From Bacteroidota bacterium (lineage in GTDB: Bacteria; Bacteroidota; Ignavibacteria; UBA10030; SZUA-254), in the NCBI GenBank assembly GCA_030019075.1, contig JASEHD010000003.1:1-58676 (forward strand): DNA of 58,676 nucleotides, read 5' to 3'. The notes beneath the pieces are model-generated. The model was not told the DNA's origin. It searched no databases and saw only the letters and a list, made by a program, of their open reading frames with translations. The translations under genes were made by a program, and so were the position numbers. Positions 24,910 through 50,109 of this stretch are shown piece after piece (the stretch's first letter is position 1; each line of letters starts with the position of its first letter).

Positions 24910-24977
24910 CAAAATTTTATTAGAATCATATTTCGACTAAATATATTGACACAATTAATGATAAAAGAAAATTACAC

Positions 24978-26761: not shown

Positions 26762-26785
26762 AGAAGTAATTTATTTTATTTAAAC

Positions 26786-29207: not shown

Positions 29208-29214
29208 GGTCTTT

Positions 29215-29703
29215 ATGAAATATTTAATAATCTTTGTTATTATATTCAGCTTCGCATCATTGTGTAATGCTCAAGTTGCAGTACCAGAAACCGAATCGAA
29301 GGAGATGGGTGCATCGGTTTATGGTATCGGACTCTCATCGGGAGTGGCAAGTGGTTTTGGCTTAAGCTTTCGTCATCATTTACCAAGCAATCTATCATAT
29401 CAACTGATTGGTGGTGTAATAAAAGTTGATGAAGATGTTTCCTATAATCTTGGTGGTGAATTGCATTTTGATTTTACCCGCGGGGTATCAACAAGATTTT
29501 TTGGTGCAGGAACGATGGGTTATTTCTATCAGGGTGATTCAAGCAACGAGTTAACTGCCCCGTTTCGTTTGGGTTTAGGTATAGGTGGTGAGTTTCGGAT
29601 AGCCGAAGCTTTACATTTTAATGCAGAACTATTGTTCACATATTTCACTAACGGTGATATTCTACCATTACCACAAGCAAGTATTCATTATTATTTCTTT
29701 TGA
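29215..29703 (+). CDS. Small signal-peptide outer-membrane beta-barrel protein
   Basis: Signal peptide ..CNA-QV, Gly-rich alternating pattern, C-terminal ..HYYFF. Confidence 0.45.
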   Translation: MKYLIIFVIIFSFASLCNAQVAVPETESKEMGASVYGIGLSSGVASGFGLSFRHHLPSNLSYQLIGGVIKVDEDVSYNLGGELHFDFTRGVSTRFFGAGTMGYFYQGDSSNELTAPFRLGLGIGGEFRIAEALHFNAELLFTYFTNGDILPLPQASIHYYFF

Positions 29704-29760
29704 AAATTGATAAATTATTTCTTATCTTCAAAAGAACTTTTTAACTCTATCACAATCTGA

Positions 29761-30273
29761 ATGAATTTTGAAGTAGTTTTCTTTTTTTCCATAGCTGCAC
29801 TCGCTATTGTATCAGCTATCTTGATGATTACACAGCGCAATCCAATCAAAAGCGTTATCTTCTTGATTGTGAATTTCTTTTGTATTGCACTCATTTATCT
29901 TATCCTTCATGCACAATTCATCGCTATCATCCAAATATTAGTATATGCCGGCGCCATCATGGTGCTATTTCTTTTTATCATTATGCTTCTCAATCTTGGA
30001 GATGAATCTGCCCTGACTGAAAAAATAGGATACAAAAAAACAATCGCATACGTTCTTTCTGCAGTTTTATTATTGGAAATTGTTATTGGTTTATCCTTGC
30101 CATGGACGGTTGCTGCGAGTCGGATTCACCCGAATGCAAACGAGATAGGAACTGTGGAGGCGATCGGCAAGTCGCTATTTATTGATTATCTATTACCTTT
30201 TGAAGTTATTTCGATGCTGCTTCTGGCTGCCATTGTCGGTGTTATTGTTTTAGCAAAGAAGAAATTCCAATGA
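29761..30273 (+). CDS. nuoJ: NADH-quinone oxidoreductase subunit J
   Basis: 170 aa, ND6-like (..[10 protein letters not shown]...[15 protein letters not shown]..). 4-nt overlap with nuoK. Confidence 0.85.
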
Positions 30274-30590
30274 ATTTTAATATTACAGATATTCCGTTGA
30301 ATTCTTATTTGGCATTGAGTGCTATATTATTTTCCATTGGTGTTATCGGTGTTCTTACCCGGCGTAATGCTATAGTAGTTTTCATGTGCATAGAGCTGAT
30401 GCTTAACTCAGTAAACCTCACGCTGGTAGCATTCTCTGCCTTTCACGGAAATATAACCGGACAAATACTTGTGTTTTTCGTAATGGCAGTCGCTGCTGCG
30501 GAAGCTGCGGTTGGGTTAGCAATCATCATCGCCCTCTTCCGCAACAAGATGACTATGAATATTGATGAAATTAATATTATGAAATGGTGA
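30270..30590 (+). CDS. nuoK: NADH-quinone oxidoreductase subunit K
   Basis: 106 aa, ND4L-like ([24 protein letters not shown]...[11 protein letters not shown]). Confidence 0.9.
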
Positions 30591-30595
30591 TAAAT

Positions 30596-30662
30596 GATTT
30601 CGGATTTCGGATTTCAGATTTCGGATATTTTTAAACATATCTCATATCTCACATCTCATATC
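30596..30662. repeat. Two back-to-back heptamer tandem arrays in the nuoK-nuoL spacer
   Basis: The unit GATTTCG or a close variant occurs 4-5 times (30596-30630). The unit ATATCTC or a close variant occurs about 4 times (30637-30662). Confidence 0.8.
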
Positions 30663-30673
30663 GGCTGAGAGTT

Positions 30674-32623
30674 ATGCACGAGTATATAAGTTATATTGTA
30701 CTACTTCCATTCATCGGGTTCCTGATTAATGGTATTTTTGGGAAGAAGTTTTCCGAAAAGTTTAGCGGCATCATAGGCAGTAGCGCGGTTGGGATTACCT
30801 TTGCTATTGCTGTAATGATTTTCTTCGAGATGCTCAAGCTGCCGGTGGAGGAGCGTTCACATATCGTTACAATATTTAGTTGGATTGCTGCCGGCTCGTT
30901 ATCAATCAATGCCGCTTATCAAGTTGATCAGCTTTCGATATTGATGACGCTGATTGTTACAGGTGTAGGTTTCCTGATTCATGTTTATTCAATCGGCTAC
31001 ATGCACGGAGATAAGGGTTTCTGGAGGTTCTTCGCTTATCTGAATTTATTTATCTTCATGATGCTGAACCTTGTTCTTGCGGATAATTTTCTCCTGATGT
31101 TCCTTGGATGGGAGGGAGTTGGACTTTGTTCATATCTTCTCATCGGTTTCTGGCATGATAAGAAATTTGACACAGGTGGTTATAAAACTGGTGAAGCTAC
31201 CACGAGCGATGCAGCGAAGAAAGCATTCGTGGTTAACCGTATTGGTGACTTCGGATTTTTGATTGCGATGTTCCTGATATTCAATCTGTTCGGCACCTTA
31301 GCGTTCGAAGATGTCTTCAGCCGTGCATCAGCTATCATTCCGATTGGCGATACAACAATGTTCTGGATTACGCTGCTGTTGTTCCTCGGCGCTACTGGAA
31401 AATCTGCTCAGATTCCTCTCTTCGTCTGGCTGCCCGATGCGATGGCAGGTCCTACGCCTGTGAGCGCACTCATTCACGCCGCCACGATGGTAACCGCTGG
31501 TGTGTACATGGTTGCTCGATGTTCAGTTCTGTATGCTCTTGCACCTGCTTCGATGGAAATTGTTGCAATTGTTGGAATAGCGACGGCATTTTTTGCCGCA
31601 ACAATGGGGTTAGTGCAAAATGACATCAAGAAAATTCTTGCATACTCTACGATCAGTCAGCTTGGATACATGTTCCTCGGACTCGGTGTTGGTGCATTTG
31701 CAGCAGGTATTTTCCATGTGATGACACATGCGTTTTTTAAAGCGCTGCTTTTCCTCGGTGCTGGCGCAGTTATTCATGCGATGCACGATGAGCAGGACAT
31801 CCAAAAGATGGGTGGATTAAAATCGAAGATGCCGGCAACGTACAAAACATTTTTTATTGCCGCACTGGCAATTGCTGGCATCCCGCCGCTTTCTGGATTT
31901 TTCAGTAAAGATGAGATTTTGTGGAAGGCATTTTCAGATGGCTCGGTAGTTTATTTTATAATTGGTTGGATAACTGCTGGGTTGACTGCATTCTACATGT
32001 TCCGACTTGTCTCGTTAACCTTTGAAGGCAAAGAGCGCTGGTCGCACGATAAACATCCACACGAAGCACCAAAAGTAATGACTGTGCCGTTGATAATTCT
32101 CGCCGTACTTTCTGTAGTCGGCGGATTTGTTGGAATCCCACATGCCCTCGGCGGCGGCAACGCAATCGAGCAATGGCTTGAACCAATCTTTAAGCGGGCT
32201 AATTTGCATTTAGCAACCGGTCATCATTCAGGTTTAACTACCGAATATTTATTGATGATTCTTTCTGTATTTGTAGGTGTTGCCGGAATTTATTTCGCCC
32301 GAAAACTCTATCTCCAAAATCCCGAGCTTGTTGAGAGACTCACAACTTCGTTCCGCAATATTCACAAGTTGTTATGGAATAAATACTTTGTTGATGAGAT
32401 TTACGATGCCACAGTTGTTACACCAATCGTCAAAGGATCGGATAAGTTGCTGTGGAAGGGATTCGACGTTGGAATAATTGATGGAATTGTAAATGGTTCT
32501 GCGAAGTTAACAGCATGGATCAGCAGTTGGATGCGGAAGATTCAATTCGGCGCTGTGCAAAACTATGCGATGGTGTTTGTCCTTGGAATAATTATAATTT
32601 TAGGAATACTAATTTTAAAATAA
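30674..32623 (+). CDS. nuoL: NADH-quinone oxidoreductase subunit L
   Basis: 649 aa, ND5-like (GWEGVGLCSYLLIGFW, SAQIPLFVWLPDAMAGPTPVSALIHAATMVTAG). Has the long C-terminal extension typical of the NuoL lateral helix. Confidence 0.9.
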   Translation: MHEYISYIVLLPFIGFLINGIFGKKFSEKFSGIIGSSAVGITFAIAVMIFFEMLKLPVEERSHIVTIFSWIAAGSLSINAAYQVDQLSILMTLIVTGVGFLIHVYSIGYMHGDKGFWRFFAYLNLFIFMMLNLVLADNFLLMFLGWEGVGLCSYLLIGFWHDKKFDTGGYKTGEATTSDAAKKAFVVNRIGDFGFLIAMFLIFNLFGTLAFEDVFSRASAIIPIGDTTMFWITLLLFLGATGKSAQIPLFVWLPDAMAGPTPVSALIHAATMVTAGVYMVARCSVLYALAPASMEIVAIVGIATAFFAATMGLVQNDIKKILAYSTISQLGYMFLGLGVGAFAAGIFHVMTHAFFKALLFLGAGAVIHAMHDEQDIQKMGGLKSKMPATYKTFFIAALAIAGIPPLSGFFSKDEILWKAFSDGSVVYFIIGWITAGLTAFYMFRLVSLTFEGKERWSHDKHPHEAPKVMTVPLIILAVLSVVGGFVGIPHALGGGNAIEQWLEPIFKRANLHLATGHHSGLTTEYLLMILSVFVGVAGIYFARKLYLQNPELVERLTTSFRNIHKLLWNKYFVDEIYDATVVTPIVKGSDKLLWKGFDVGIIDGIVNGSAKLTAWISSWMRKIQFGAVQNYAMVFVLGIIIILGILILK

Positions 32624-32686
32624 AACCCTCACTTTATTAGGATGGTCAAAATATATTTCTTAGAGCTTCTTATTGATCTTTGTGAA

Positions 32687-32744
32687 CTTAGTGGTTAATA
32701 AAAGATTTACCACTAAGGCACTAAGAGCACTGAGGTTCACTAAG
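32687..32744. repeat. 9-bp perfect hairpin plus a CACTAAG motif array in the nuoL-nuoM spacer
   Basis: CTTAGTGGT (32687-32695) pairs with ACCACTAAG (32709-32717). CACTAAG or CACTGAG recurs at 32711, 32719, 32728 and 32738. Confidence 0.75.
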
Positions 32745-32811
32745 TATTTTAAGTTAACTTCATCAGCTAATGATCAAAAGAGGGAAATAAATAAAATGAT
32801 AACAGAATTTA

Positions 32812-34413
32812 ATGACTAATCTTCTCACATACATAATATTTCTTCCGCTTGTTGGCGGGTTATTGATCTTTTTTTATAATCGGGAAAAAGTAACTGCGAT
32901 TAAAGTGTTTGGAATAGCTATCAGCGTTCTTACATTTTTACTTTCGTTATTATTATACTTTGGATTTGATACAGCGAATCCGGGTATTCAATTCCAGCAT
33001 AAAGTTCTCTGGATTTCAAGTCTAAATATCTCTTACAATGTAGGAATAGATGGACTATCTCTGCTCCTTGTAATGCTAACAACATTCCTTACACCCATTG
33101 CATTGCTCTCTTCGTGGAATTCAATCGAGAAGCGGGTGAAGGAATACACCATCATGATGCTCTTCCTCGAAGTTGGAATGTTGGGTGTCTTTAGTGCATT
33201 AGATATGTTCCTTTTCTACATCTTCTGGGAAGCGATGTTGATTCCAATGTACTTCATCATCGGAGTGTGGGGTGGAGGAAACAGAATTTATGCTGCCATA
33301 AAGTTCTTCATTTATACAATGTTCGGCAGCTTGCTGATGCTTGTTGCAATTATCTGGCTCGGATATTACGCTTCCACACAACCTAACGGACAATTCACAA
33401 CCGACCTGATGCAGCTTTATAACATCGGTCCAACAATTCCACTTACCATTCAATCGTGGATGTTTCTTGCATTCACATTAAGTTTTGCAATTAAAGTTCC
33501 GTTGTTTCCTTTTCACACGTGGTTGCCAGATGCACACGTTGAAGCACCCACCGCTGGAAGTGTTATTCTTGCTGGTGTTCTGTTGAAAATGGGAACGTAT
33601 GGTTTGCTGCGTTTCTCTATACCTCTTTTCCCCCAAGCAACATTTGAATTCATGCCATACATGGCAACTCTTGCTGTTGTTGGTATTATTTATGGTGCAC
33701 TCGTCTCAATGGTTCAAACTGATATCAAGAAGCTTGTTGCTTATTCTTCAGTGAGTCATCTGGGATTTGTTGTTCTTGGTATTTTCGCACTTACCGAAGA
33801 AGGCATTCAAGGCGCGATTATTCAGATGGTTAATCACGGACTATCAACCGGGGCTCTCTTTTTAATAGTCGGTATGATTTACGAACGCAGGCACACACGC
33901 GAGATTGTTGAGTTCGGTGGATTGGCGAAAGTAATGCCGCTCTTTTCAACTTTCTTCATGATTGTATCGCTGTCATCAATTGGCCTTCCCGGGCTTAATG
34001 GATTTGTTGGTGAGTTCTTGATTTTGCTCGGTGCATTCCGCTCTCCATTTATGAGTCAGTGGTTTACAATATTTGCGGCAACCGGAGTGATCTTTGCAGC
34101 AGTTTATCTCTTATGGGTGTATCAGCGAGTGATATTTGGTAAAATCACCAATCCTCTCAATCAAAATCTTCTCGATCTTTCGAAACGTGAGATTGCCGTT
34201 CTTGTACCTGTATTATTGTTTATCGTTTGGATTGGAGTTTATCCAAATACATTTCTTAAACAATCAGCATCAACAACTAAACAAATCGTTCGTTCTTTTG
34301 AACCGCAATCTACGGGCAAGAGATATACACGGTTAGCGGGACAAAAACAGTCAAATCAAATATCACCATTACCCGAGGTGAGTGCAAGTGAAAAACTTTT
34401 CGAGTTGCGATGA
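32812..34413 (+). CDS. nuoM: NADH-quinone oxidoreductase subunit M
   Basis: 533 aa, ND4-like (FYIFWEAMLIPMYFIIGVWGG, KVPLFPFHTWLPDAHVEAPTAGSVILAGVLLKMG). Confidence 0.9.
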   Translation: MTNLLTYIIFLPLVGGLLIFFYNREKVTAIKVFGIAISVLTFLLSLLLYFGFDTANPGIQFQHKVLWISSLNISYNVGIDGLSLLLVMLTTFLTPIALLSSWNSIEKRVKEYTIMMLFLEVGMLGVFSALDMFLFYIFWEAMLIPMYFIIGVWGGGNRIYAAIKFFIYTMFGSLLMLVAIIWLGYYASTQPNGQFTTDLMQLYNIGPTIPLTIQSWMFLAFTLSFAIKVPLFPFHTWLPDAHVEAPTAGSVILAGVLLKMGTYGLLRFSIPLFPQATFEFMPYMATLAVVGIIYGALVSMVQTDIKKLVAYSSVSHLGFVVLGIFALTEEGIQGAIIQMVNHGLSTGALFLIVGMIYERRHTREIVEFGGLAKVMPLFSTFFMIVSLSSIGLPGLNGFVGEFLILLGAFRSPFMSQWFTIFAATGVIFAAVYLLWVYQRVIFGKITNPLNQNLLDLSKREIAVLVPVLLFIVWIGVYPNTFLKQSASTTKQIVRSFEPQSTGKRYTRLAGQKQSNQISPLPEVSASEKLFELR

Positions 34414-34416
34414 TTG

Positions 34417-34998
34417 ATGTCGGACAGAAAACAAAATATTCATTTACCGGGTCTGATAATCCTGGCAGTAATTCTTTTTGGATTATGGCTTGTCTTTAGC
34501 GCTCACTTTGATGTTTTTCATATCTCTGCTGGTGTAGTTGCTGTAATTATTGTAATTCTTCTAAACTATCGACTTCTCCGGCTCAATTTATATCCTGAGA
34601 TTGATGAACTAAATCCGCCAATAAGAATCCTCCGCATTCTACCTTATACGTTCTGGCTGATAAAAGAAATTTTTATCGCGAATCTGCAAGTCGCCTATCT
34701 GATTATTCATCCTAAGATGCCGATCAAGCCAAGTATGGTACAGTTCACAACAAAACTACCATCGACAGTTGCAAAAGTTATTTTAGGAAATTCTATAACA
34801 CTCACACCCGGTACACTAACTATTGATATCGATAGCGATGTATTTTTAGTGCATAGTCTAACGCCATCAAGCGCTGGCTCGCTCGAAAGCGGTGAGATGC
34901 AGAAGCGCGTTCTGAAATTATACGGAGATAACATCTCCCAATCTGTATCAGATTTCCAACATCTCGATAACATTGATTCGGAAAAGCCGCATGGTTGA
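34417..34998 (+). CDS. Mrp/Mnh antiporter subunit E-like
   Basis: The ATG lies 4 nt after the nuoM stop (the ORF track starts at the TTG at 34414). Carries the MnhE signature GNSITLTPGTLTID...LVHSL. Confidence 0.8.
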   Translation: MSDRKQNIHLPGLIILAVILFGLWLVFSAHFDVFHISAGVVAVIIVILLNYRLLRLNLYPEIDELNPPIRILRILPYTFWLIKEIFIANLQVAYLIIHPKMPIKPSMVQFTTKLPSTVAKVILGNSITLTPGTLTIDIDSDVFLVHSLTPSSAGSLESGEMQKRVLKLYGDNISQSVSDFQHLDNIDSEKPHG

Positions 34999-35260
34999 GA
35001 TTATTATTATGACAACAATTGCCCTCTCGGTGGCTATGGTCATTCCATTTTATCGTGTTGCGGTTGGTCCCACAGTCTACGACCGCATACTTGGTGTTGG
35101 AGTGATGGGAACGAAAGCAATCGTTTTGATAACATTAGTTGGTTTTATCTTTGATCGTTTCGATATGTTCATTGATATCGCACTGGCTTATGCGCTCCTA
35201 AATTTTATCGGAACCGTTGCGGTAGCAAAATATCTGGAGCGAAAGGGGATAGAACATTAA
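34991..35260 (+). CDS. Mrp/Mnh antiporter subunit F-like
   Basis: GPTVYDRILGV signature. The ATG at 34991 overlaps the upstream stop (ATGGTTGA). The ORF-track alternative is the TTG at 34973. Confidence 0.8.
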   Translation: MVEIIIMTTIALSVAMVIPFYRVAVGPTVYDRILGVGVMGTKAIVLITLVGFIFDRFDMFIDIALAYALLNFIGTVAVAKYLERKGIEH

Positions 35261-35595
35261 TGAATATTCTTGATATTCTTGGAAGTGTTATTCTTGTGGC
35301 AGGTCTTATTTTCGTGTTGATTGGAAGTATCGGTATAATTCGCTTTCCGGATTTCTATACAAGAACACATGCCGCTGGTAAGTGCGATACACTTGGACTT
35401 GTGCTTGTTTTAATTGGCTTAGGTTTTCACGTGGAAGGTATGTTAAATACGATCAAGTTGTTGCTGATAGCTGTTTTTATTGCAATTGCAAATCCGACTG
35501 CTACACATGCTATTGCGCGTGCTGCGTATCGTTTAGGATTGAAGCCATTGCTTGATCTAAAATCAAAAGATTCACAGAATGACACTCTATCTTGA
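35260..35595 (+). CDS. Mrp/Mnh antiporter subunit G-like
   Basis: IGSIGIIRFPDFYTRTHAAGKCDTLG signature. TAATG overlap with the upstream gene. Confidence 0.85.
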   Translation: MNILDILGSVILVAGLIFVLIGSIGIIRFPDFYTRTHAAGKCDTLGLVLVLIGLGFHVEGMLNTIKLLLIAVFIAIANPTATHAIARAAYRLGLKPLLDLKSKDSQNDTLS

Positions 35596-35824
35596 AATAA
35601 TTATTTATTTACTTTTGATAGGTTGTGCGATAATTGCGCTTCGTGTAAAAGATTTACTTGCCGCTATTGTTGTGCTCTCGGCATATAGTTTATGTTCGGC
35701 ATTTCTGTTCGCAGTAGTTGGGGCAGTTGATGTTGGTTTTACCGAAGCTGTAGTGGGTGCGGGTCTTTCAGGGCTTCTATTTTTGGCAGCACTGTTCTAC
35801 ACATCAAGAAAGTCGGCGGATTGA
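35579..35824 (+). CDS. MnhB N-terminal-type small subunit (DUF4040 / MbhD-like)
   Basis: 81 aa with 3 transmembrane helices (..VDVGFTEAVVGAGLSGLLFL..). 17-nt overlap with the upstream gene. Confidence 0.7.
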   Translation: MTLYLEIIIYLLLIGCAIIALRVKDLLAAIVVLSAYSLCSAFLFAVVGAVDVGFTEAVVGAGLSGLLFLAALFYTSRKSAD

Positions 35825-36129
35825 AGATTTTATCTTACATATTGCTGATTGTGTTTGGTATGCTTCTCGTTTACGCTGCAACTGAACTACCAATGCGTGG
35901 TAGTATCGATGCCCCATGCAATGTTGATTCCTCTTTAACAGGTACGCCAGGAGCTTCAACATATTACATTCGCAACGCTCAGAAGGAAATGAACACACCA
36001 AACATGGTTACTGCAATCCTTGCAGATTATCGTGGTTACGATACGCTTGGTGAAACAACAGTAATCTTCTGTGCCGGTATTGTCGTCTTTTTAATTCTCC
36101 GAAAGTTGAAAGATGGTAAAAAAATCTAG
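35821..36129 (+). CDS. MnhB-related small subunit (MbhE-like)
   Basis: TTG start overlapping the upstream stop. Carries the NMVTAILADYRGYDTLGETTVIF motif characteristic of MnhB-domain proteins. Confidence 0.7.
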   Translation: MKILSYILLIVFGMLLVYAATELPMRGSIDAPCNVDSSLTGTPGASTYYIRNAQKEMNTPNMVTAILADYRGYDTLGETTVIFCAGIVVFLILRKLKDGKKI

Positions 36130-36553
36130 CAGCATTATTGTCGGAATTGTTAGCCGTGCGATTGTGCCGTTCATACAGTTGTTCGCGTTATATGTGATTG
36201 TGCATGGTCATTCGAGTCCGGGTGGCGGCTTTCAAGGCGGTGCGTTGTTAGGTGCGAGTATCTTGTTATTACGTTTAACGGTAGGTAGAGAGGGAAGTGA
36301 ACTTGTTTTCCCGGAACGCATGGGTACACCGATGAGCGGCTTCGGAGTTTTTATTTATGCCTTTGTTGGTGTTGCGGCAATGATTGGCGGTGGAGTTTAT
36401 TTGAACTATGCTTTCCTCCCGATTGGCGGAATGCAGCCGGCTGAACTTCGCTCGCTTGGGATTCTGTTAGTTGAAACCGGAGTTGGTATAGGTGTCATGG
36501 CAACGATGATTGTTATCTTCGATGATATTGCGAAAGGGAATTTCCATGATTGA
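36113..36553 (+). CDS. Mrp/Mnh antiporter subunit B core (MbhF-like)
   Basis: ..LFALYVIVHGHSSPGGGFQGGALLGASI.. signature. 17-nt overlap with the upstream gene. Confidence 0.8.
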   Translation: MVKKSSSIIVGIVSRAIVPFIQLFALYVIVHGHSSPGGGFQGGALLGASILLLRLTVGREGSELVFPERMGTPMSGFGVFIYAFVGVAAMIGGGVYLNYAFLPIGGMQPAELRSLGILLVETGVGIGVMATMIVIFDDIAKGNFHD

Positions 36554-36914
36554 GCAATTCCTCGGTCATAGTGCATACTTCTTCATCGTCATTCTTCTCC
36601 TTATCGGAATGTACGGAATGCTTTTCAAAAAAAATCTAATAAAAAAATTGATTGGCATGAACATCCTTCAATCATCCATAATACTTTTTTACGTGGTGAG
36701 TGCTTATAAATGGAATGCTACAGTCCCTGTGCTTGACCCACGATTGGGTGAACCTATTCCGATGCAATACATAAATCCACTTCCTCATACATTGATGCTG
36801 ACTGCAATCGTTGTAAGTGTTGCCACAACAGGCGTAGCGCTCGCTTTGATTGTTGTGCTTTACAAACGTTATCATACGTTGGACGAAGATGAACTATTGG
36901 AGCGAATGAAATGA
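36546..36914 (+). CDS. Mrp/Mnh antiporter subunit C-like (NuoK paralogue)
   Basis: The ATG at 36546 overlaps the upstream stop (ATGATTGA), whereas the ORF track starts at 36510. Motifs LIKKLIGMNILQSS and NPLPHTLMLTAIVVSVATTGVALAL. Confidence 0.8.
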   Translation: MIEQFLGHSAYFFIVILLLIGMYGMLFKKNLIKKLIGMNILQSSIILFYVVSAYKWNATVPVLDPRLGEPIPMQYINPLPHTLMLTAIVVSVATTGVALALIVVLYKRYHTLDEDELLERMK

Positions 36915-38419
36915 TCTGGGAACACTTCCCCGCACTCATTCCGATTTCACTTTTACTTGGTGCCTTGATTTCTGCGCCTCTTGGTATCTGGAAACGTTTC
37001 GTTTCGTATCCGATTGCATTAACTGCTGTAGGAATATCATTCACATCTGCAATCGTTGCATTAATCTACGTGCTGAATGAAGGTAGTTACAGCTATCATT
37101 TAGGTGGCTGGTTTCCTCCGATTGGCATTGAGTATGTAATTGATCCTCTCTCATCGTTCGTCGTTCTTATAGTTGTCGGTGTTGGATTTTTTGTTATGAT
37201 TTACTCTCACCGCTCACTTCAGGATGAATTGTCGATGAAGGAGGTTCAATTCCATGCGGTTGCACTTTTATATTTAGCTGGATTGAGCGGAATGGTTGTT
37301 ACCGGCGATCTTTTCAATCTATATGTCTTCTTAGAGATTGCCTCGCTATCAGCATACGCATTAGTCGCAGTTGGTGAGAAGCGCGCTACATTTTCTGCAT
37401 TTCGGTATCTCATGCTGGGAACGATTGGCGCTTCTTTTTATTTATTGGGACTTGGTTATTTATATTTAGTAACCGGCTCGCTAAATATGGCTGATATTGC
37501 AAAAATAATTCCAATGCTCCATGAAAACACCTTAGTTGCAGTAGCGTTGGCATTGATGGTGGTTGGTATTGGTTTGAAGATGGCATTGTTCCCGCTGCAC
37601 CTTTGGCTGCCCGATGCATACACGTACGCACCATCTGTCGGGAGTGCTTATCTTGCACCTATCGGAACAAAAGTTTCTGCTTACGTTCTCATACGTATTT
37701 TGTTCACCGTTTTTCAGCCGCATTATGTTGAAGAAGTTTTCCCTATAACAACGATCATAGTTTGGTTATCGGCAACCGGAATCATTGTTGGCTCGATTAT
37801 GGCTATCGCTCAAAAAGAATTGAAGCGGATGTTAGCATACAGCAGTGTTGCACAGATTGGATACATCGGGCTTGGAATCGGTTTGGCAAATCCACTTGGT
37901 TTCATTGGGGCTGTGCTTCATATTTTAAACCATGCGATGATGAAAGCCGCCTTGTTTTTAGTAAGCGGTAATCTTCGCTACCGATTCGGCTCAACTGATA
38001 TCTCGCATTTTAATCAGAAGATGCGTATCGCAATGCCCTGGACTTCAGCAGTTTTTGCTGTTGCTTCTCTCTCGATGATCGGTATTCCTCCCACTGCCGG
38101 TTTTTTCAGTAAATGGTATCTCGTTTTAGGAAGTATTGATTCCGGAAATTGGTTTTTTGTTGTTGTGATTGCTCTAAGCAGTCTTTTGAATGCAGTTTAC
38201 TTCTTCAGAGTTTTAGAAAAGATGTATCTTGTTAGGCAAGCTGAGCATGTAAGTTTAGATGCTGATAAATCTTTTCACAAGGAATTCAAAGTGAAAGAGG
38301 CGCCCATCTCGATGCTTATTCCAACCTTAATATTCGGTGCAGCAGTAATTGTGTTAGGATTATTGAATGCCTTAATTGTTAATAACATCATCAAGATTGC
38401 GATACCGAATGGATTGTAA
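36911..38419 (+). CDS. MrpD/NuoM/NuoN-family antiporter-like subunit, copy 1
   Basis: 502 aa with LFPLHLWLPDAYTYAPSVGSAYLAP, LAYSSVAQIGYIGLG and HILNHAMMKAALFL. 4-nt overlaps on both sides. Confidence 0.85.
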   Translation: MIWEHFPALIPISLLLGALISAPLGIWKRFVSYPIALTAVGISFTSAIVALIYVLNEGSYSYHLGGWFPPIGIEYVIDPLSSFVVLIVVGVGFFVMIYSHRSLQDELSMKEVQFHAVALLYLAGLSGMVVTGDLFNLYVFLEIASLSAYALVAVGEKRATFSAFRYLMLGTIGASFYLLGLGYLYLVTGSLNMADIAKIIPMLHENTLVAVALALMVVGIGLKMALFPLHLWLPDAYTYAPSVGSAYLAPIGTKVSAYVLIRILFTVFQPHYVEEVFPITTIIVWLSATGIIVGSIMAIAQKELKRMLAYSSVAQIGYIGLGIGLANPLGFIGAVLHILNHAMMKAALFLVSGNLRYRFGSTDISHFNQKMRIAMPWTSAVFAVASLSMIGIPPTAGFFSKWYLVLGSIDSGNWFFVVVIALSSLLNAVYFFRVLEKMYLVRQAEHVSLDADKSFHKEFKVKEAPISMLIPTLIFGAAVIVLGLLNALIVNNIIKIAIPNGL

Positions 38420-39915
38420 TGCCAATTGATGTTTACATATCCACCGTTCCATTTTATGCAGTCATCGTATCGCTGATTGCTGTTCCGTTTATTCTATTCA
38501 GCTCACGAATTCCGAATCTGAGAGAGTTCTGGACACTTGCTGCATCGGTTATCAAATTTCTATTAGTTTTCTCACTTGTTCCGAATGCGCTGAGTAATCG
38601 TGTGGCAGAGTTTACATTTTTTGAGATATCTCCAAACATCTCACTAACACTTCGTGCTGATCCTTTTGGTGTTTACTTTGCTCTAATCGCTTCAGGTTTG
38701 TGGATTCTCACTTCGTTGTATTCGATTGGATATGTGCGAGGATTAAATGAACACAAGCAAACCCGATACTTTGCAAGCTTTGCAGTTTGCTTGTCTTCAA
38801 CCATCGGAGTTGCCTTCGCTGCCAATCTCTTGACGTTTATTGTTTTTTATGAGATGCTCACAATTGCAACGTATCCATTAGTCATTCACAAAGAAACTCC
38901 CGAAGCTATCAGCGCGGGAAGAAAATATTTAATTTATACATTAAGCGCAGGCGTTGCTCTTATTGTAGCAATCGCATGGACGTACAACCTGACAGGTACG
39001 GTAGAATTTCAGTACGGTGGTTTGTTCGGTACTGTTTCTTTACCTGATGAAACAGTTAAAATATTATTTCTGCTTTTCATGGCGGGAGTTGGAGTCAAAG
39101 CAGGTATCATGCCTCTGCATAGCTGGCTTCCAACAGCAATGGCAGCCCCTACACCTGTAAGCGCATTACTTCATGCAGTTGCGGTTGTAAAATCCGGTGT
39201 CTTTGGTGTAGTTCGTGTTGTTGGATTTGTTTTCGGGCCTGAGATGATGAAGAACTACGGATTGAATAACATCCTATTTGTGTTCGCTGGTTTTACAATA
39301 ATTCTTGCATCATTGTTAGCATTACGCGAAGACAACCTCAAGCGGCGACTCGCATATTCAACTATTGGTCATCTTTCTTATATCGTCTTAGGAGTTGCAT
39401 TGTTATCACCCGATGGGGTAACAGGTGGAGTCATGCACCTTGCTGCTCATGCAACGATGAAGATTACACTCTTCTTCTGTGCAGGTGCAATCTATGTGAG
39501 TTTGCATAAAGAAAATGTTAGTGAGTTAGATGGAATCGGAAAAATAATGCCCTGGACGATGGGTGCATTCACAATCGGTGCAATCGGGTTAGCTGGCATC
39601 CCACCGATAAATGGTTTCGTTAGTAAATTCTATATCGGTGCCGGTGCAATAGAATCGCACGATTATTTTGCGCTCGTGATATTATTGGTAAGTGGTTTGT
39701 TGAATGCAGCGTATCTTTTTCCAATCATCGTACGAGCGTATTTCAAAGAATCAAATAATCAGCAATTTAAAAGTGAAGCAAACTTGTTCATGGTTATACC
39801 TATTGTTGTAACAGCAATTCTCTCTCTAATCTTTGGTCTTGCTCCAAATTTGTGGTTCCGTATTTTTGATTTCGGTACAACTGTGGCTAAAAATATTTTG
39901 GGAGGAATTAATTGA
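38419..39915 (+). CDS. MrpD/NuoM-family antiporter-like subunit, copy 2
   Basis: 498 aa with IMPLHSWLPTAMAAPTPVSALLHAVAVVKSG, LAYSTIGHLSYIVLG and HLAAHATMKITLFF. Confidence 0.85.
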   Translation: MPIDVYISTVPFYAVIVSLIAVPFILFSSRIPNLREFWTLAASVIKFLLVFSLVPNALSNRVAEFTFFEISPNISLTLRADPFGVYFALIASGLWILTSLYSIGYVRGLNEHKQTRYFASFAVCLSSTIGVAFAANLLTFIVFYEMLTIATYPLVIHKETPEAISAGRKYLIYTLSAGVALIVAIAWTYNLTGTVEFQYGGLFGTVSLPDETVKILFLLFMAGVGVKAGIMPLHSWLPTAMAAPTPVSALLHAVAVVKSGVFGVVRVVGFVFGPEMMKNYGLNNILFVFAGFTIILASLLALREDNLKRRLAYSTIGHLSYIVLGVALLSPDGVTGGVMHLAAHATMKITLFFCAGAIYVSLHKENVSELDGIGKIMPWTMGAFTIGAIGLAGIPPINGFVSKFYIGAGAIESHDYFALVILLVSGLLNAAYLFPIIVRAYFKESNNQQFKSEANLFMVIPIVVTAILSLIFGLAPNLWFRIFDFGTTVAKNILGGIN

Positions 39916-40139
39916 TGAAACGTTGGCACTGGATATCATTAGGTATTCTAACAATCATCTCCATCATAGTTGAACTAACGATGGTTTCAGAAACAGAACA
40001 CGGCACGCATTGGTGGAGTGTTATTCCTCTGTTTTATATTTTATTCGGATTTGTTGGATGTGTGGTGATTGTATTTTTCTCGAAAGCTATTGGGAAAATC
40101 TTCCTTCAAAAGAAAGAGGATTATTATGATACCCTATGA
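39912..40139 (+). CDS. Small two-helix membrane protein inside the mrp-like block
   Basis: 75 aa with two hydrophobic helices. 4-nt overlap upstream and 14-nt overlap downstream. No family recognised. Confidence 0.4.
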   Translation: MMKRWHWISLGILTIISIIVELTMVSETEHGTHWWSVIPLFYILFGFVGCVVIVFFSKAIGKIFLQKKEDYYDTL

Positions 40140-41856
40140 GCTAATGATTCCCCCGGCATTTGTTATGATTATTGGAGCGCTTCTTTTACCGGTTTTACCA
40201 AAGTTCTTTCGTTCTATCTGGTTTTTGATCGTTTCACTTTTAACACTCGTAATATTATGGAATTTACCTGTTGGTTCATTCCATAACATACCGTTTTTAC
40301 GTCATAATCTTGTTTTAACCCAATCCGATGCATTAAGTCGGGTCTTTGGTGCTATTTTTGCCCTGATTGCATTTATTGGTGGAATTTACTCATTTCACGT
40401 CAAAGATGTAAAACACCAGATTGCCGCACTGCTTTATGGCGGCTCTGCTTTAGGTATTACTTTCGCTGGAGATTTAATAACATTATTTATCTATTGGGAG
40501 TTGATGGCTATATCGTCATCGTATCTGATCTGGGCTAGGAAAACAAAAGAATCGGAGAAGGCGGGGATGCGTTATCTGATTGTTCATCTTTTTGGCGGAA
40601 GTTTATTGTTAGCCGGAATTTTACTTCACATTGATCAAACCAATTCAATTTTAATTACACAAATACCTCAAAATTATTCATTGGCATCTTGGTTAATTCT
40701 AATCGGAGTATGTTTGAACGCCGCAGTTCCACCACTTCATGCATGGTTATCAGACGCATATCCAAAAGCAACTGTAACCGGTGCCGTGTTCCTAAGTGCC
40801 TTTACAACGAAGGCAGCAGTGTATGTCCTTGTTCGGATGTTTGCTGGCTGGGAAGTTCTACTCTGGTTCGGTGTTGCGATGGCTTTGTATGGCGTTGTGT
40901 TTGCAGTTCTTGCGAATGATATAAGAGAGATTCTTGCATATCACATCATCAGTCAGGTTGGTTACATGGTGGCGGGAGTGGGCATTGGTACAATAATGTC
41001 TTTGAATGGAACAACGGCACACGCATTCAGTCATATTTTATATAAGGCACTTTTATTCATGGGTGCTGGGGTTGTTTTACAAACCACAGGCAAAAGTAAA
41101 CTGACGGAGTTGGGTGGTTTGTACAAAAATCAACAACTTACTTTTTGGTTATACATGATTGGTGCATTTTCTATTTCGGGATTTCCGTTATTCAATGGTT
41201 TCATCAGCAAATCGATAATTGTCGGTGCAGCGGGGGAATCGCAACTCGATTGGGCTTTTTTATTGCTCACACTTGCAAGCATCGGAACTTTTTATTGCCT
41301 CGGTTTGAAAATCCCAAAGTTCACTTGGTTCGATGGAGAGAAAAATGTGAAATCAACAAAACTGCCGTTAAACATGCACATTGGAATGGCTTTCGCTGCC
41401 GGGCTTTGTTTTATATTTGGCGTTGCACCATCGTTGTTATATCGTTATCTGCCTTTTCCTCTTCAATATGAACCTTATACTGCATCTCACCTCGTAGAAA
41501 CAGTTCAGCTATTGATATTCACTTTTGTTGGTTTTTGGTTGTTGAAAAGAATTGCTGGCGGCGAACAGCGCATCACGCTCGACACAGATTGGATTTACCG
41601 CCGGCTGGCTAAACCGATATGGAATATTATCGTCATTCCGGTTGATAAGTTTTTCTCGCATACAGATGTGATAATGATGGGAGTCGTAAAATTATTAGTC
41701 TGGACAACTAAAAATCCGATGCAATTATTCAATCCGAGCTTGAAGAATATTTCATACAATCCCGACCGTCAAAGGACAACAACACAAGTAATAATATCAT
41801 TGATATTGTTGTGTATGGTATTTTTAGGAATTGTTGGGTTGTGGTATTTGAAGTAG
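40126..41856 (+). CDS. MrpD/MrpA-core-family antiporter-like subunit, copy 3, with a C-terminal extension
   Basis: The ATG at 40126 (MIPYELM..) is preferred to the ORF-track start at 40069. Motifs VPPLHAWLSDAYPKATVTGAVFLSAFTTKAAVY, LAYHIISQVGYMVAG and HILYKALLFMGAG. Confidence 0.8.
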   Translation: MIPYELMIPPAFVMIIGALLLPVLPKFFRSIWFLIVSLLTLVILWNLPVGSFHNIPFLRHNLVLTQSDALSRVFGAIFALIAFIGGIYSFHVKDVKHQIAALLYGGSALGITFAGDLITLFIYWELMAISSSYLIWARKTKESEKAGMRYLIVHLFGGSLLLAGILLHIDQTNSILITQIPQNYSLASWLILIGVCLNAAVPPLHAWLSDAYPKATVTGAVFLSAFTTKAAVYVLVRMFAGWEVLLWFGVAMALYGVVFAVLANDIREILAYHIISQVGYMVAGVGIGTIMSLNGTTAHAFSHILYKALLFMGAGVVLQTTGKSKLTELGGLYKNQQLTFWLYMIGAFSISGFPLFNGFISKSIIVGAAGESQLDWAFLLLTLASIGTFYCLGLKIPKFTWFDGEKNVKSTKLPLNMHIGMAFAAGLCFIFGVAPSLLYRYLPFPLQYEPYTASHLVETVQLLIFTFVGFWLLKRIAGGEQRITLDTDWIYRRLAKPIWNIIVIPVDKFFSHTDVIMMGVVKLLVWTTKNPMQLFNPSLKNISYNPDRQRTTTQVIISLILLCMVFLGIVGLWYLK

Positions 41857-41942
41857 GGTTGAATACCCCATCTTAGCTTATTTTTTGTTTCTTTTCCAAA
41901 AATTCCCTAATTTAACAAAAAACTTTAATTATTCTCGCAACC

Positions 41943-43361
41943 ATGAACATTACAGAACTCTTTGCAATCGCCCCAATAATTTCTATAACAATTGTATCGC
42001 TTATTGTTTTACTCGTAGAAGCATTAGTTAAACGGAGCGAAGGGCTGAGCTATTGGATAAGCGTTGTTGGTTTAGTGGTTACTGCTTATTTTGCTATTGC
42101 AACATTACCGCTGATCGGAACTGCATTCAATCGGATGGTTACAGTCGGTGGATTCGGTAGTATGTTTGCAACGCTATTCAGTATTGCAGCGCTTCTAACA
42201 ATAATACTTTCGAAGGATTATCTTCAAAAAGAACATGCAAACTTTACAGAATTTTATCTTCTCATATTATTCTCAACCCTTGGTATGATGCTTATGGCGT
42301 CTGCTGCTGATCTCATAGTAATATTCTTGGGATTGGAGTTAATGTCTATTTGCCTCTACGTTCTTGCCGGTTTCTTACGCAAGAAAGTTTTAGCCAACGA
42401 GGCTTCACTTAAATATTTTCTGCTTGGTGCATTTGCAACCGGTTTTCTTCTTTACGGCATCGCGCTTCTCTACGGTGCATCGGGAACAACAAATATTTCT
42501 TTCATTGTCCAAAATTCATCCACACTTTCGGCGTCTCCATTTTTCTGGATTGGTCTCGGTTTATTACTAATTGGATTTGCATTCAAAGTTGGTGCAGTTC
42601 CGTTCCACATGTGGGTACCGGATGTTTATCAGGGTTCACCAACGACCGTTTCTGGCTTTATGGCTACTGGCGCAAAAGCCGCTGCATTTGCAGCGTTTGT
42701 GTTGATATTCCTACATCCTCAATCTGAAAATTCAGAACAAGTAAAAACTGTTCTTGCAGTCATATCAGCAGCTTCGATGATTGTTGGTAACATAATTGCT
42801 ATCTCTCAATCGAACATCAAACGTATGCTCGCATATTCCAGCATTGCACATGCAGGATACATGCTTGCCGGACTTGCAGCCGGTAATCAACTTGGGAAAA
42901 CAGGAATTCTATTCTACCTCGTTACCTACACATTTATGAATATCGGTGCGTTTGGCATTCTCTCGCTTCTCGAAAGGGAAGAAGATAAGAATCTCACTTT
43001 CGATGATTACGCTGGACTTGGTTTTAAGCGTCCTTTCCTTGCTGCCCTGATGGCGATATTCATGTTTTCGCTTGCAGGTATTCCACCGTTTGCCGGTTTC
43101 TTTGGTAAGTATTACGTCTTCGTTGCAGCTATCAATGCGAACCTTACATGGCTTGCAATTCTTGGTGTGCTGATGAGTGTTGTGTCAGTTTATTATTATC
43201 TCCGCTTGACTGTTCTGATGTACTTTAAAGAAGGAGATATGCAAATAGAAGGAATAATATCAAAAACGAGTTTGGCTGTCTTAACTATCGCAGCATTGAT
43301 TATCATACAACTTGGTGTTTATCCAAGTTCAATTCTTAACATCATCAACAATCTCAATTAA
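41943..43361 (+). CDS. nuoN: NADH-quinone oxidoreductase subunit N
   Basis: 472 aa, ND2-like (VPFHMWVPDVYQGSPTTVSGFMATGAKAAAF, LAYSSIAHAGYML). Confidence 0.85.
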   Translation: MNITELFAIAPIISITIVSLIVLLVEALVKRSEGLSYWISVVGLVVTAYFAIATLPLIGTAFNRMVTVGGFGSMFATLFSIAALLTIILSKDYLQKEHANFTEFYLLILFSTLGMMLMASAADLIVIFLGLELMSICLYVLAGFLRKKVLANEASLKYFLLGAFATGFLLYGIALLYGASGTTNISFIVQNSSTLSASPFFWIGLGLLLIGFAFKVGAVPFHMWVPDVYQGSPTTVSGFMATGAKAAAFAAFVLIFLHPQSENSEQVKTVLAVISAASMIVGNIIAISQSNIKRMLAYSSIAHAGYMLAGLAAGNQLGKTGILFYLVTYTFMNIGAFGILSLLEREEDKNLTFDDYAGLGFKRPFLAALMAIFMFSLAGIPPFAGFFGKYYVFVAAINANLTWLAILGVLMSVVSVYYYLRLTVLMYFKEGDMQIEGIISKTSLAVLTIAALIIIQLGVYPSSILNIINNLN

Positions 43362-43363: not shown

Positions 43364-44938
43364 ATGGAAACTGTTGTCACATCGGCTGAGATGCAAGCAT
43401 GTGATCATTATGCTATTGACACTCTCAAGATTCCCGGTTTAATCTTGATGGAAAATGCCGGTAGTGGAGTTGTTGAGATGATAGAAAAGCATTTTGGCTC
43501 AATGGCTGGTAAAACTGTTGTTATCGTTTGTGGAAAAGGCAATAACGGTGGTGATGGATACGTAGTGGCTCGGCATCTTTTTAACCGGGGGGCGAAAGTG
43601 ATAGTATTACTTCTTTGGAAACCGAGCGAGCAAAAAGGAGATGCAAAAATTAACTTCGAGAGTATTCAGAAAATTTCTTCGAAGTTCAATAAAGATGAAA
43701 TGCTCCAGATTAAAGAATTGAAATCAAGCCGTACATTGCGACTGCTCCCCAAACCCGATATTATTATCGATGCGATTTTTGGAACGGGATTTTCGGGTGA
43801 AGTTCGTGAATCATATCAATCGGTCATTGAATGGATTAACATATCCCACGCGAAAAAAGTAAGTATCGATATGCCATCAGGTGTGAATGCTGATAATGGT
43901 GAAGTGAATAACGTCGCTATAAAAGCTGATTTGACTGTAACAATGGCACTGAAAAAGGTCGGCTTAATCACTGGCGAAGGAATGAGTTACGCCGGTAAAG
44001 TTGAAGTGGTTGATATTTCCATGCCAAGCGAAATTTGCAAAAAGCCACAGACGTTTATTGTTGGTGCTGATGATGTGCGACGAGTTTTACCTCGCCGTCC
44101 CGTCAACGCACATAAGCACAGTGTTGGGAAGATATTCGTTCTTGCCGGCTCACCTGGATTTACAGGAGCAGCCGCAATGACTGCGAGTACTGCTATGAAA
44201 GCTGGTGCGGGAGCAGTAATTCTCGGAACTCCAAATTCTGTTTATCACATCCTTGCTAAAAAACTCACAGAAGTCATGGTCGAGCCGCTACCAGATACAG
44301 AAGAAGGGACTTTAAGTCTTACCGCATACGAGAAAATAATAAAACATCTCAAATGGTCAGATGTACTAATTTGTGGACCCGGCATCTCACGCAATCTTGA
44401 AACTTGCCAATTAATTTGGAAAATAGTTTCAGAATATAATAAAAAGATTTTGATAGATGCCGATGGGTTAAACAATCTTTCAGAGAAAATTTCATTCCTA
44501 AAGAACCATACAAGCCGGGAAATAATCATTACTCCACACACAGGTGAGCTTTCACGTCTCACGGGGTTATCATCAATTGATATTGAGAAGAATCGCGTAA
44601 GTATTGCAAGACAAATGGCTAAGCAATTTCGACTCACGCTCGTACTCAAAGGTGCGCCAACAGTTATCGCCGATGAAAATGGTATAGTTTACATCAACTC
44701 AACAGGAAACCCAGGCATGGCTTCAGCAGGTATGGGTGACATTCTTGCTGGCTTAATTGGTGGTTTATGGGCACAGGGAATGAGTAGAACGGAAGCAGCG
44801 TATTCTGGAGTTTTCCTGCACGGTTATGCAGGCGATATGGCGAGGAATAAATACGGAGAGAAAAGTCTGCTTGCAATGGATGTCCAAGATTTTCTATACA
44901 AATCTATACTTGAAATAGAAAATAGCAACTCGTTGTGA
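43364..44938 (+). CDS. nnr: Bifunctional NAD(P)H-hydrate repair enzyme (epimerase / ADP-dependent dehydratase)
   Basis: 524 aa. YjeF-N region (CGKGNNGGDGYV) plus a carbohydrate-kinase-like C-domain (GSPGFTGAAAM, GMGDILAG). Confidence 0.9.
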   Translation: METVVTSAEMQACDHYAIDTLKIPGLILMENAGSGVVEMIEKHFGSMAGKTVVIVCGKGNNGGDGYVVARHLFNRGAKVIVLLLWKPSEQKGDAKINFESIQKISSKFNKDEMLQIKELKSSRTLRLLPKPDIIIDAIFGTGFSGEVRESYQSVIEWINISHAKKVSIDMPSGVNADNGEVNNVAIKADLTVTMALKKVGLITGEGMSYAGKVEVVDISMPSEICKKPQTFIVGADDVRRVLPRRPVNAHKHSVGKIFVLAGSPGFTGAAAMTASTAMKAGAGAVILGTPNSVYHILAKKLTEVMVEPLPDTEEGTLSLTAYEKIIKHLKWSDVLICGPGISRNLETCQLIWKIVSEYNKKILIDADGLNNLSEKISFLKNHTSREIIITPHTGELSRLTGLSSIDIEKNRVSIARQMAKQFRLTLVLKGAPTVIADENGIVYINSTGNPGMASAGMGDILAGLIGGLWAQGMSRTEAAYSGVFLHGYAGDMARNKYGEKSLLAMDVQDFLYKSILEIENSNSL

Positions 44939-49255: not shown

Positions 49256-49328
49256 GCGGGAATAGCTCAGTTGGTAGAGCGTCACCTTGCCAAGGTGAAT
49301 GTCGCGGGTTCGAATCCCGTTTCCCGCT
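49256..49328 (+). tRNA. tRNA-Gly (anticodon GCC)
   Basis: Hand-folded cloverleaf. Acceptor GCGGGAA/TTCCCGC, D arm GCTC..GAGC, anticodon arm TCACC-TTGCCAA-GGTGA, T arm GCGGG-TTCGAAT-CCCGT. CCA is not encoded. Confidence 0.9.
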
Positions 49329-49408
49329 CAAATAATGCAAAAGTAAAGATACCATATCATAAAACAAAGGATTTTTTTACTTTTGCATTTTTAATTATTT
49401 TGATTATT

Positions 49409-49458: not shown

Positions 49459-49461
49459 TGT

Positions 49462-49746: not shown

Positions 49747-49771
49747 AATGTGTGTGAAGCAAATTTTATCT

Positions 49772-50019: not shown

Positions 50020-50035
50020 CGCACGAATGTGCAAT

Positions 50036-50109
<74 letters not shown>

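Follow-up and report, generated by a model that had tools for sequence, protein, structure and literature searches.

Contig JASEHD010000003.1 of a Bacteroidota bacterium (GTDB lineage Ignavibacteria; GenBank assembly GCA_030019075.1) encodes the complex I membrane-arm subunits NuoJ, K, L, M and N, and a whole Mrp operon lies between nuoM and nuoN. Positions 1 to 58,676 of this contig, read on the forward strand, were analysed and are called the window (58.7 kb). The 11 co-oriented open reading frames (ORFs) that separate nuoM from nuoN occupy 7.4 kb and are predicted to form a complete group-3 Mrp (CPA3) cation/proton antiporter. The Mrp module is autonomous. Probably, it is co-expressed with nuoJKLM and forms a complex of its own, and nuoN has its own promoter; the genes would not encode an extended or chimeric membrane arm. 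Such an arm, or else an obligatory co-expression of complex I with Mrp, had been proposed in an earlier, sequence-only reading of the region. The first proposal is not supported by the present analysis, and the second survives in part.

In the explanation that we prefer, the mrp genes, which have no intergenic space of their own, would be transcribed together with nuoJKLM. The nuoN, nnr and vanZ genes would be served by a conserved promoter of their own, in addition to possible read-through. Complex I and Mrp would assemble as separate complexes. To export Na+ (or K+), Mrp would draw on the proton-motive force generated by complex I. Through co-expression, Na+/pH homeostasis, or else a sodium cycle, would become linked to the activity of respiration.

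Complex I membrane-arm genes

Gene families were assigned by Pfam and NCBIfam scans of the window ORFs, with curated cutoffs and gathering scores applied. All genes of the cluster are on the + strand. nuoJ (29761-30273; 170 amino acids, aa) matches PF00499 at 1.4e-40 with a score of 139 vs 33; NuoJ reached no NCBIfam equivalog cutoff. It overlaps nuoK (30270-30590; 106 aa; PF00420, 7e-30) by 4 nt. The subunit-specific models exceed their curated cutoffs for NuoK (NF004320, 131.8 bits vs 57), for NuoL (30674-32623; 649 aa; TIGR01974, 776 bits vs 407), for NuoM (32812-34413; 533 aa; TIGR01972, 647 bits vs 264) and for NuoN (41943-43361; 472 aa; TIGR01770, 463 bits vs 333). In a neighbour-joining tree of 80 antiporter-like proteins, made with no bootstrap, the window NuoL, NuoM and NuoN each fell inside their own Nuo clade, and the three antiporter-like proteins of the Mrp block (D1, D2 and D3) fell in three separate Mrp-module clades. 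None of the Nuo proteins branched inside the Mrp clades. The three Nuo genes are thus assigned as bona fide nuoL, nuoM and nuoN.

Residues 9-646 of the window NuoL align end to end with residues 7-604 of Thermus thermophilus Nqo12 (4HE8_L). Its C-terminal 190 residues differ from Nqo12 by small indels only, and the lateral-helix region contains no insertion. The lateral helix is therefore of canonical length, sized for three antiporter-like subunits. An extended membrane arm was rejected on this helix length.

No nuoA-I genes are present anywhere in the 58.7-kb window. Likewise, no NuoB/C/D/H/I-like or [NiFe]-hydrogenase-like redox module was found among the coding-strand ORFs of at least 110 aa that were scanned in the window; an MBH/MBS-like redox complex was ruled out by the lack of such a module. 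A split nuo gene set is typical of the clade, because asnS directly precedes nuoJ in relatives.

The eleven-gene Mrp module

The first three genes of the block are mrpE (34417-34998; 193 aa; PF01899, 5e-32), mrpF (34991-35260; 89 aa; PF04066, 6e-17; NF009244 match) and mrpG (35260-35595; 111 aa; PF03334, 6e-30; TIGR01300, 98 bits vs a cutoff of 63). They are followed by two small genes that together correspond to the C-terminal domain of MrpA. The MbhD-like gene (35579-35824; 81 aa; PF13244, 1.6e-17) represents its first part, and the MbhE-like gene (35821-36129; 102 aa; PF20501, 3.8e-12), which matches the C-terminal ends of MrpA models, represents its second part. MbhD and MbhE are equivalent to transmembrane helices (TM) 17-21 of MrpA (PMC8415708). 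Next come mnhB/mrpB (36113-36553; 146 aa; PF04039, 3.5e-23) and the NuoK-like mrpC (36546-36914; 122 aa; PF00420, 4.5e-23), whose best NCBIfam match is NF005621 (Mrp subunit C). The E, F, G, MbhD, MbhE, MnhB and C families all score above their gathering scores.

The remaining genes encode three PF00361 proteins and one small protein. mrpD1 (36911-38419; 502 aa; 1.7e-63) belongs to an orthologous clade of its own that occurs in Mrp modules only, and mrpD2 (38419-39915; 498 aa; 2.9e-63) belongs to the D2 clade. A gene that we call x75 (39915-40139), with two predicted hydrophobic helices, is located between mrpD2 and mrpD3. mrpD3 (40126-41856; 576 aa) matches NF009310 ('Na+/H+ antiporter subunit D') with 690 bits vs a cutoff of 564 and is of the MrpA-N/NuoL/MbsH' type. 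The MrpA C-terminal domain is found on none of the three PF00361 proteins. A group-3 Mrp is defined by the lack of mrpA and the presence of multiple mrpD genes (PMC8415708). Relative to a canonical Mrp, the module lacks no functional part and has one additional MrpD.

These assignments bear out the ten Mrp/Mnh-type ORFs recognised in the sequence-only reading, and the three motifs quoted there, NSITLTPGT (in MrpE) and GPTVYDR among them, are present. The eleventh ORF, described as a two-helix protein of 75 aa without a family, indeed has two helices and no family match, and encodes 74 aa from the ATG at 39915. Similarly, the third MrpD-like protein is of the family proposed and is 576 aa long from the ATG at 40126, rather than about 577 aa. 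All Mrp-internal junctions with ATG starts overlap, by 1-17 nt as had been noted. The G+C content of the module is 0.39-0.43, near the values of its flanks.

D3 and the small protein x75

D3 is more than a plain MrpD. An AlphaFold2 model of D3 (predicted local distance difference test, pLDDT, 72.8) has a 14-TM core followed by a helix at 453-477, a long helix at 487-528 and a helix at 550-575. The model shows TM15, a lateral helix of about 42 residues and TM16 after the core. In a Foldseek search, its top matches were MrpA (7QRU_A and 6Z16_A), followed by NdhF, NuoL and MbsH'. The best PDB match by sequence was MbsH' (6U8Y_X). D3 is accordingly predicted to be an MrpA-N-like subunit. In the D3 alignment, E125, K229, K307 and K395 are invariant. 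E125 is the conserved Glu of TM5, and the three lysines likely correspond to those of TM7, TM8 and TM12. These residues are consistent with the predicted monovalent cation/H+ antiport.

x75 has no Pfam or NCBIfam match, and PDB sequences, searched with a profile of the family, yielded nothing. In about 70 loci, it is always located between D2 and D3, directly upstream of mrpD3 and overlapping it. The family carries the conserved motif WW..IP.F..FGF.GC..I..SK.LGK..LQK.EDYYD. At E<=1e-3, the x75 homologues in a library of 1.8 billion proteins make up 358 clusters (50% identity), and each of the 150 proteins listed has a length of 45-125 aa. The conserved protein itself has about 70-75 aa. Public records name them 'hypothetical protein'. 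x75 is thus a genuine protein of a widespread, unannotated family and appears to be a subunit of Mrp modules.

Some Desulfobacteraceae, Desulfatiglandales and Scalindua loci carry a second x75-mrpD3 pair in tandem (...D2-x75-D3-x75-D3; comparison loci are numbered with L: L038, L050, L065, L066 and L070-L072, e.g., L066 9784-13600). Partial signs of an x75-D3 duplication are seen in L044 and L052. The tandem pairs suggest that x75 and D3 duplicate together and that some modules have four antiporter-like subunits.

Junctions and transcription units

The nuoM stop codon (34411-34413) is followed after 3 nt by the mrpE ATG (34417), as the sequence-only reading had stated for nuoJKLM and the ORFs after it. 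The mrpD3 stop is 86 nt away from the nuoN ATG. No terminator-like site was found in this spacer or at the nuoM-mrpE junction. Because mrpE has no upstream spacer, the promoter that serves the mrp genes would be located either within nuoJKLM or ahead of it, and their co-expression with nuoJKLM is likely. Read-through from mrpD3 to nuoN is possible, since no terminator-like site was seen.

A 33-nt promoter-like block, TTTTTGTTTCTTTYCYAAAAWWTCCCTAATTTA, is located upstream of nuoN (41882-41914, + strand). It is identical in the window and in four close-relative loci, L086, L087, L088 and L089, which represent three distinct relatives. When the DNA upstream of nuoN is aligned among these five, similarity starts exactly at the 33-nt block. 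The DNA 5' of the block is unrelated and consists of a restriction-modification system (two loci), a ParB/radical-SAM island (one) or a contig break (one). The block occurs once in the window, where chance alone predicts 0 matches. Two readings of it are TTGTTT-17 nt-TAATTT and TTTG-N20-TAATTTAA, and the equivalent site of the more distant L114 reads TTTG-N20-TAATTTTA. A sigma-70 promoter scan showed no enrichment (48 found vs 45.7 expected), and the strict Bacteroidetes -33/-7 consensus gave 5 matches vs 2.5 expected in the window, which is not significant. The simplest reading of the block is a dedicated nuoN-nnr promoter.

The co-expression proposed earlier is thus likely for mrp and nuoJKLM, given the tight coupling to nuoM, and the obligatory single unit reaching to nuoN is not supported, in view of the invariant block. 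Comparison among relatives points to a separate promoter at one of the two junctions, that of nuoN.

The nuoM-nuoN junction in relatives

Relatives show that the junction between nuoM and nuoN is variable in content. The closest match was at 63% (MrpD3) in a scan of genome contigs and at 60% (NuoN) in a scan of metagenome contigs, and the census of close relatives rests on five look-ups. The order asnS-nuoJKLMN-nnr-vanZ is typical of Ignavibacteria-like loci (L007, L096, L100, L103, L104, L110, L112 and L128). Because this order recurs, the detached membrane-arm cluster is regarded as a trait of the clade. Among the Ignavibacteria-like loci with both genes, nuoM and nuoN are contiguous in 13. 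About 10 Ignavibacteria-like loci carry a single 1.5-kb CitMHS_2 gene between the two. It is labelled an antiporter after the NCBI names of its cluster members ('sodium:proton antiporter'); no NCBIfam model matches the protein. The sequence-only reading had named as a precedent a single antiporter gene in the complex I operon of Rhodothermus marinus, and this precedent proved relevant, as the nuoM-nuoN slot of relatives commonly holds one such gene.

The whole Mrp operon occupies the slot in two further loci. L114 (JAANMW010000106.1) and L170 (GCA_026129445.1) have the order nuoL-nuoM-antiporter-(11-gene Mrp)-nuoN-nnr-vanZ-tgt-yajC-ribBA-greA. They are two independent assemblies of one lineage, about 60% identical to the window. 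Because the nested arrangement recurs at only about 60% identity, it is considered real and old. In L114 and L170, the antiporter gene stands between nuoM and Mrp, whereas in the window lineage Mrp follows nuoM directly. L015 has nuoM-antiporter-Mrp and then a Na/Ca exchanger gene, with nuoN absent within 10 kb.

Closer relatives differ in their cargo. L001 (84-92% identical) reads nuoL-(toxin-antitoxin)-nuoM-Mrp-HipBA. L088, with a NuoN 88% identical, reads nuoM-antiporter-CPA1-Usp-(MmeI-type restriction enzyme)-nuoN. In L086 (NuoN 94% identical), ParB and radical-SAM genes are located upstream of nuoN, and in L087 (NuoN 91% identical) the contig breaks 219 nt upstream of nuoN. The gene 3' of nuoM overlaps nuoM in L015, L088 and L170. 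The nuoM-nuoN junction is hence interpreted as a lineage-specific cargo slot of the detached nuoJKLMN cluster in Ignavibacteria-like members of the Bacteroidota/Chlorobi group. The Mrp operon appears to have been added behind the single antiporter gene in a few lineages.

Other layouts are also seen. In L007, the Mrp module precedes asnS-nuoJ, and in Balneolaceae it diverges from nuoLM. In L033 (276-13268), a Balneolaceae metagenome-assembled genome, the whole module is antisense between nuoK and nuoL, so that the minus strand reads nuoJ-nuoK-(Mrp, opposite strand)-nuoL-nuoM.

The toxin-antitoxin pair of L001 (1949-2678) is of the nucleotidyltransferase/HEPN type and sits at the nuoL-nuoM junction. 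In the window, the 188-nt spacer at the same junction (32624-32811) contains a 13-bp inverted repeat (32687-32717) and reiterated CACTAAG-like words. These repeats may be the footprint of mobile cargo.

The variety of cargo raises the possibility of neutral hitch-hiking, in which the nuoM-nuoN junction is an insertion hot spot where Mrp landed by chance and is co-transcribed only by accident. We consider this unlikely, though it is the strongest of the rival explanations. It accounts for the unrelated cargo in the gap of the closest relatives, namely the MmeI-type enzyme and Usp of L088, the ParB/radical-SAM genes of L086 and HipBA of L001; the nuoL-nuoM and asnS-nuoJ junctions bear insertions as well, and most loci with the module lack nuo genes in the flanks available. 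However, cation transporters of the NhaD-like, CPA1, Mrp and Na/Ca exchanger kinds repeatedly adjoin nuoM, and the gene directly after nuoM is tightly coupled to it, whereas the defence cargo lies on the nuoN side. Moreover, the module is found near nuo in the other layouts (L007 and Balneolaceae), and the nested layout has been kept across about 40% protein divergence between the window and L114 and L170.

The module and the D2-x75-D3 trio elsewhere

A genome-collection scan with an alignment of the 576-aa D3 gave 80 loci, whose ORFs were all annotated against the window proteins. These 11 genes recur in unchanged order in about 60 of the fetched loci, and the loci concerned span more than 10 phyla. 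They come, among others, from Ignavibacteria, Acidobacteriota, Aminicenantes, Spirochaetia, Syntrophales, Desulfobacterota, Verrucomicrobiota, Dehalococcoidia, Gemmatimonadota and Methanosarcinales/ANME archaea. In most of them, the available flanks contain no nuo genes, as in the complete Melioribacteraceae chromosome L003 and in L171. The 11-gene block is therefore an autonomous operon. The best matches of D3 are from Ignavibacteria and Melioribacteraceae (61-63%). A recent horizontal acquisition from another phylum was ruled out by these matches together with the flank-like composition.

Part of the module also occurs within complex I gene clusters. In Rhizobium, Sinorhizobium, Mesorhizobium, Ensifer, Ruegeria, Acidobacteriota, Longimicrobiales and Manganitrophaceae, homologues of D2, x75 and D3 stand at the position of nuoL, in the order nuoJ-nuoK-D2-x75-D3-nuoM-nuoN (L053-L055, L060, L063, L074-L081 and L084, e.g., L074 7379-14746). 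In the tree, the trio proteins from these clusters nest inside the Mrp D2 and D3 clades. The clusters may correspond to the '2M' complexes of the literature. One Syntrophaceae contig, L036 (4206-21500), has the trio in both contexts, in that a stand-alone 11-gene module is followed about 4 kb downstream by a nuoJ-like gene and then D2-x75-D3-nuoM.

According to a second rival explanation, Mrp subunits, or at least D2-x75-D3, dock onto or extend the complex I arm, giving more than three pumps or a Na+-coupled complex I. The window does combine six antiporter-like genes with two of the NuoK type in a single block of one orientation, as the sequence-only reading had counted, and D2/x75/D3 homologues take the nuoL position in Rhizobiaceae and the other groups above. 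Furthermore, MBH and MBS show Mrp modules as integral parts of respiratory complexes (PMC8415708). The window NuoL is nevertheless canonical in its lateral-helix region, the full Mrp set (E, F, G, the B domains, C and D1) is present exactly as in stand-alone operons, the slot content is interchangeable among close relatives, the module is antisense to nuo in L033, and nuoN has a promoter-like element of its own. We therefore judge this explanation to be very improbable. Given a normal NuoL, distinct Nuo clades, a complete module and interchangeable slot content, two separate complexes would be formed rather than an extended arm.

The occurrence of D2-x75-D3 both in the 11-subunit Mrp and in place of nuoL in other phyla leads to a more speculative idea. 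The trio could be a portable extension cassette, and Mrp could dock on the distal end of complex I as a Na+/H+-coupled supercomplex with x75 as an adaptor. We judge this idea, too, to be very improbable.

The weakest alternative is an assembly artefact, in which the Mrp-nuoN join is a chimera of the metagenome assembly. The exact mrpD3-nuoN junction was not found in other contigs of the same species-level lineage; L001 and L002 end in HipBA, and L087 breaks short of the join. An artefact is nevertheless hardly credible, given that L114 and L170, assembled independently from a divergent lineage, both keep the order from nuoM through Mrp to greA, that the nuoM-Mrp half is reproduced in L001 and seen in L015, and that composition is uniform across the region.

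Several points weigh against the explanation that we prefer, i.e., an autonomous Mrp co-expressed with nuoJKLM. Co-transcription and separate assembly are inferred from sequence. The nuoN promoter is proposed from conservation and weak consensus matches, and the consensus scans were uninformative. The slot also gathers defence and toxin-antitoxin cargo and could be a neutral insertion hot spot instead of a site of selected co-expression. Finally, as the complex I operons of other phyla show, homologues of the trio can evidently belong to a complex I-type gene set, and a physical fit of D2/x75/D3 with complex I is conceivable in principle. The predicted functional link is supported by the four kinds of cation transporter that recur beside nuoM.

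Other features of the window

The gene nnr (43364-44938, + strand; PF03853 and PF01256), encoding an NAD(P)HX epimerase/dehydratase, begins 2 nt past nuoN. nnr and then vanZ follow nuoN throughout the Ignavibacteria-like loci (L086-L112, L114 and L170), and the nuoN-nnr gap is 2-4 nt in close relatives. A complex I subunit gene and a gene for an NAD(P)H-repair enzyme are here paired in a conserved way. Both belong to the conserved block nuoN-nnr-vanZ-tgt-yajC-ribBA-greA, whose order is matched in L086-L089, L114 and L170.

Upstream of nuoJ, about 4.85 kb (24910-29760) occupy the place where asnS adjoins nuoJ in relatives. This stretch contains two ORFs without a family (379 aa and 162 aa), a gene for a Dam-type N6-adenine methyltransferase and an ABC-2 transporter pair. 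The sequence-only reading had placed an ABC-2 transporter and a small OMP here and no nuoA-I; the transporter and the lack of nuoA-I were found as described, and the supposed OMP (29215-29703) has no family match.

The rest of the window is made up of housekeeping genes, a giant PAS/GAF histidine kinase, the ABC-2 transporter and tRNAs. At 15983-22701, the gene of this histidine kinase, which has 2002 aa and numerous PAS and GAF domains, precedes the gene of a response regulator. A CYTH-domain gene and thrS flank a cluster of four tRNA genes (Gly-GCC, Cys-GCA, Leu-TAA and Val-GAC; 49256-50110). Neither a CitMHS nor a Pterin_4a protein was found in the window.

Comparison with known systems

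The nearest counterpart is the nqo10-14 operon of Rhodothermus marinus, which reportedly (Melo et al. 2005) carries nhaD and pcd between nqo13 (nuoM) and nqo14 (nuoN). Both are detached clusters of the nuoJ-N type with Na+/H+ antiporter genes exactly at the nuoM-nuoN junction, and the relatives of the window have the single-gene version. In the window, the Mrp genes likewise come straight after nuoM and share its strand, and nuoN lies beyond them; pcd follows nuoM in Balneolaceae loci (nuoL-nuoM-pcd). Unlike in Rhodothermus, the cargo of the window is an 11-gene Mrp operon of 7.4 kb and not a single NhaD-type gene, pcd is absent, and a separate promoter appears to serve nuoN. As a kind of arrangement, an antiporter gene in the nuoM-nuoN gap of a detached nuoJ-N operon is already known; no description of a whole group-3 Mrp operon in this gap was found in the literature searched.

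All functional parts of the solved Mrp complexes (Anoxybacillus flavithermus 6Z16, Bacillus pseudofirmus 7QRU and Dietzia 7D3U) have counterparts in the window. D3 corresponds to MrpA-N, MbhD and MbhE together to MrpA-C, and MrpB, C, D, E, F and G to their namesakes. The window differs in that MrpA is split into three genes, one additional MrpD-type subunit is present, and the small subunit x75 has no structural counterpart.

Among group-3 systems, the stand-alone Mrp of Pyrococcus furiosus is mrpEFGBB'CD (PMC8415708). The window module shares with it the absence of a full-length mrpA and the order E-F-G-B-B'-C-D, the MrpB-domain genes being equivalent to MbhD, MbhE and MbhF. In contrast to the P. 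furiosus Mrp, it has three antiporter-like subunits and the conserved 74-aa subunit, and its D3 supplies an MrpA-N-type lateral helix that the P. furiosus Mrp lacks. In Ca. Nitrospira alkalitolerans, a group-3 Mrp is followed by two nuoM/nuoL-like genes (PMC7784846), and the extra MrpD/MrpA-like genes of the window are similarly located downstream. Neither the P. furiosus nor the Nitrospira Mrp is embedded between nuoM and nuoN. The P. furiosus MBH and MBS (6CFW and 6U8Y) are also similar, as the order of mbhA-H is E-F-G-MbhD-MbhE-MbhF-MbhG-MbhH and D3 resembles MbsH'. Unlike MBH and MBS, the window encodes no hydrogenase-like or NuoB/C/D/H/I-like redox module beside Mrp.

According to papers that cite them, Chadwick et al. 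(2018) described '2M' variants of complex I with a fourth antiporter-like subunit. Going by these accounts, the window resembles the variants in having more than three antiporter-like genes in the nuo neighbourhood. It differs from them in keeping a normal NuoL whose helix is not lengthened, and in that its extra antiporter-like genes are accompanied by the full Mrp E/F/G/B/C set.

Implications

A row of six antiporter-like genes does not equal a six-pump enzyme, and the window warns against over-reading such arrangements. Two by-products of the analysis concern Mrp and complex I in general, namely a widespread, unannotated 74-aa Mrp subunit and the D2-x75-D3 trio, which also replaces nuoL in some complex I operons. 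The latter bears on the exchange of antiporter modules between Mrp and complex I.

For the Ignavibacteria-like bacteria, the single case of Rhodothermus becomes a clade-wide pattern, in which the 3' end of nuoM recurrently hosts Na+/H+ transport genes. The cargo ranges from one gene to a whole 11-gene Mrp. In these bacteria, sodium extrusion may be tied to the synthesis of the proton-pumping arm of complex I, a hypothesis that can be tested.

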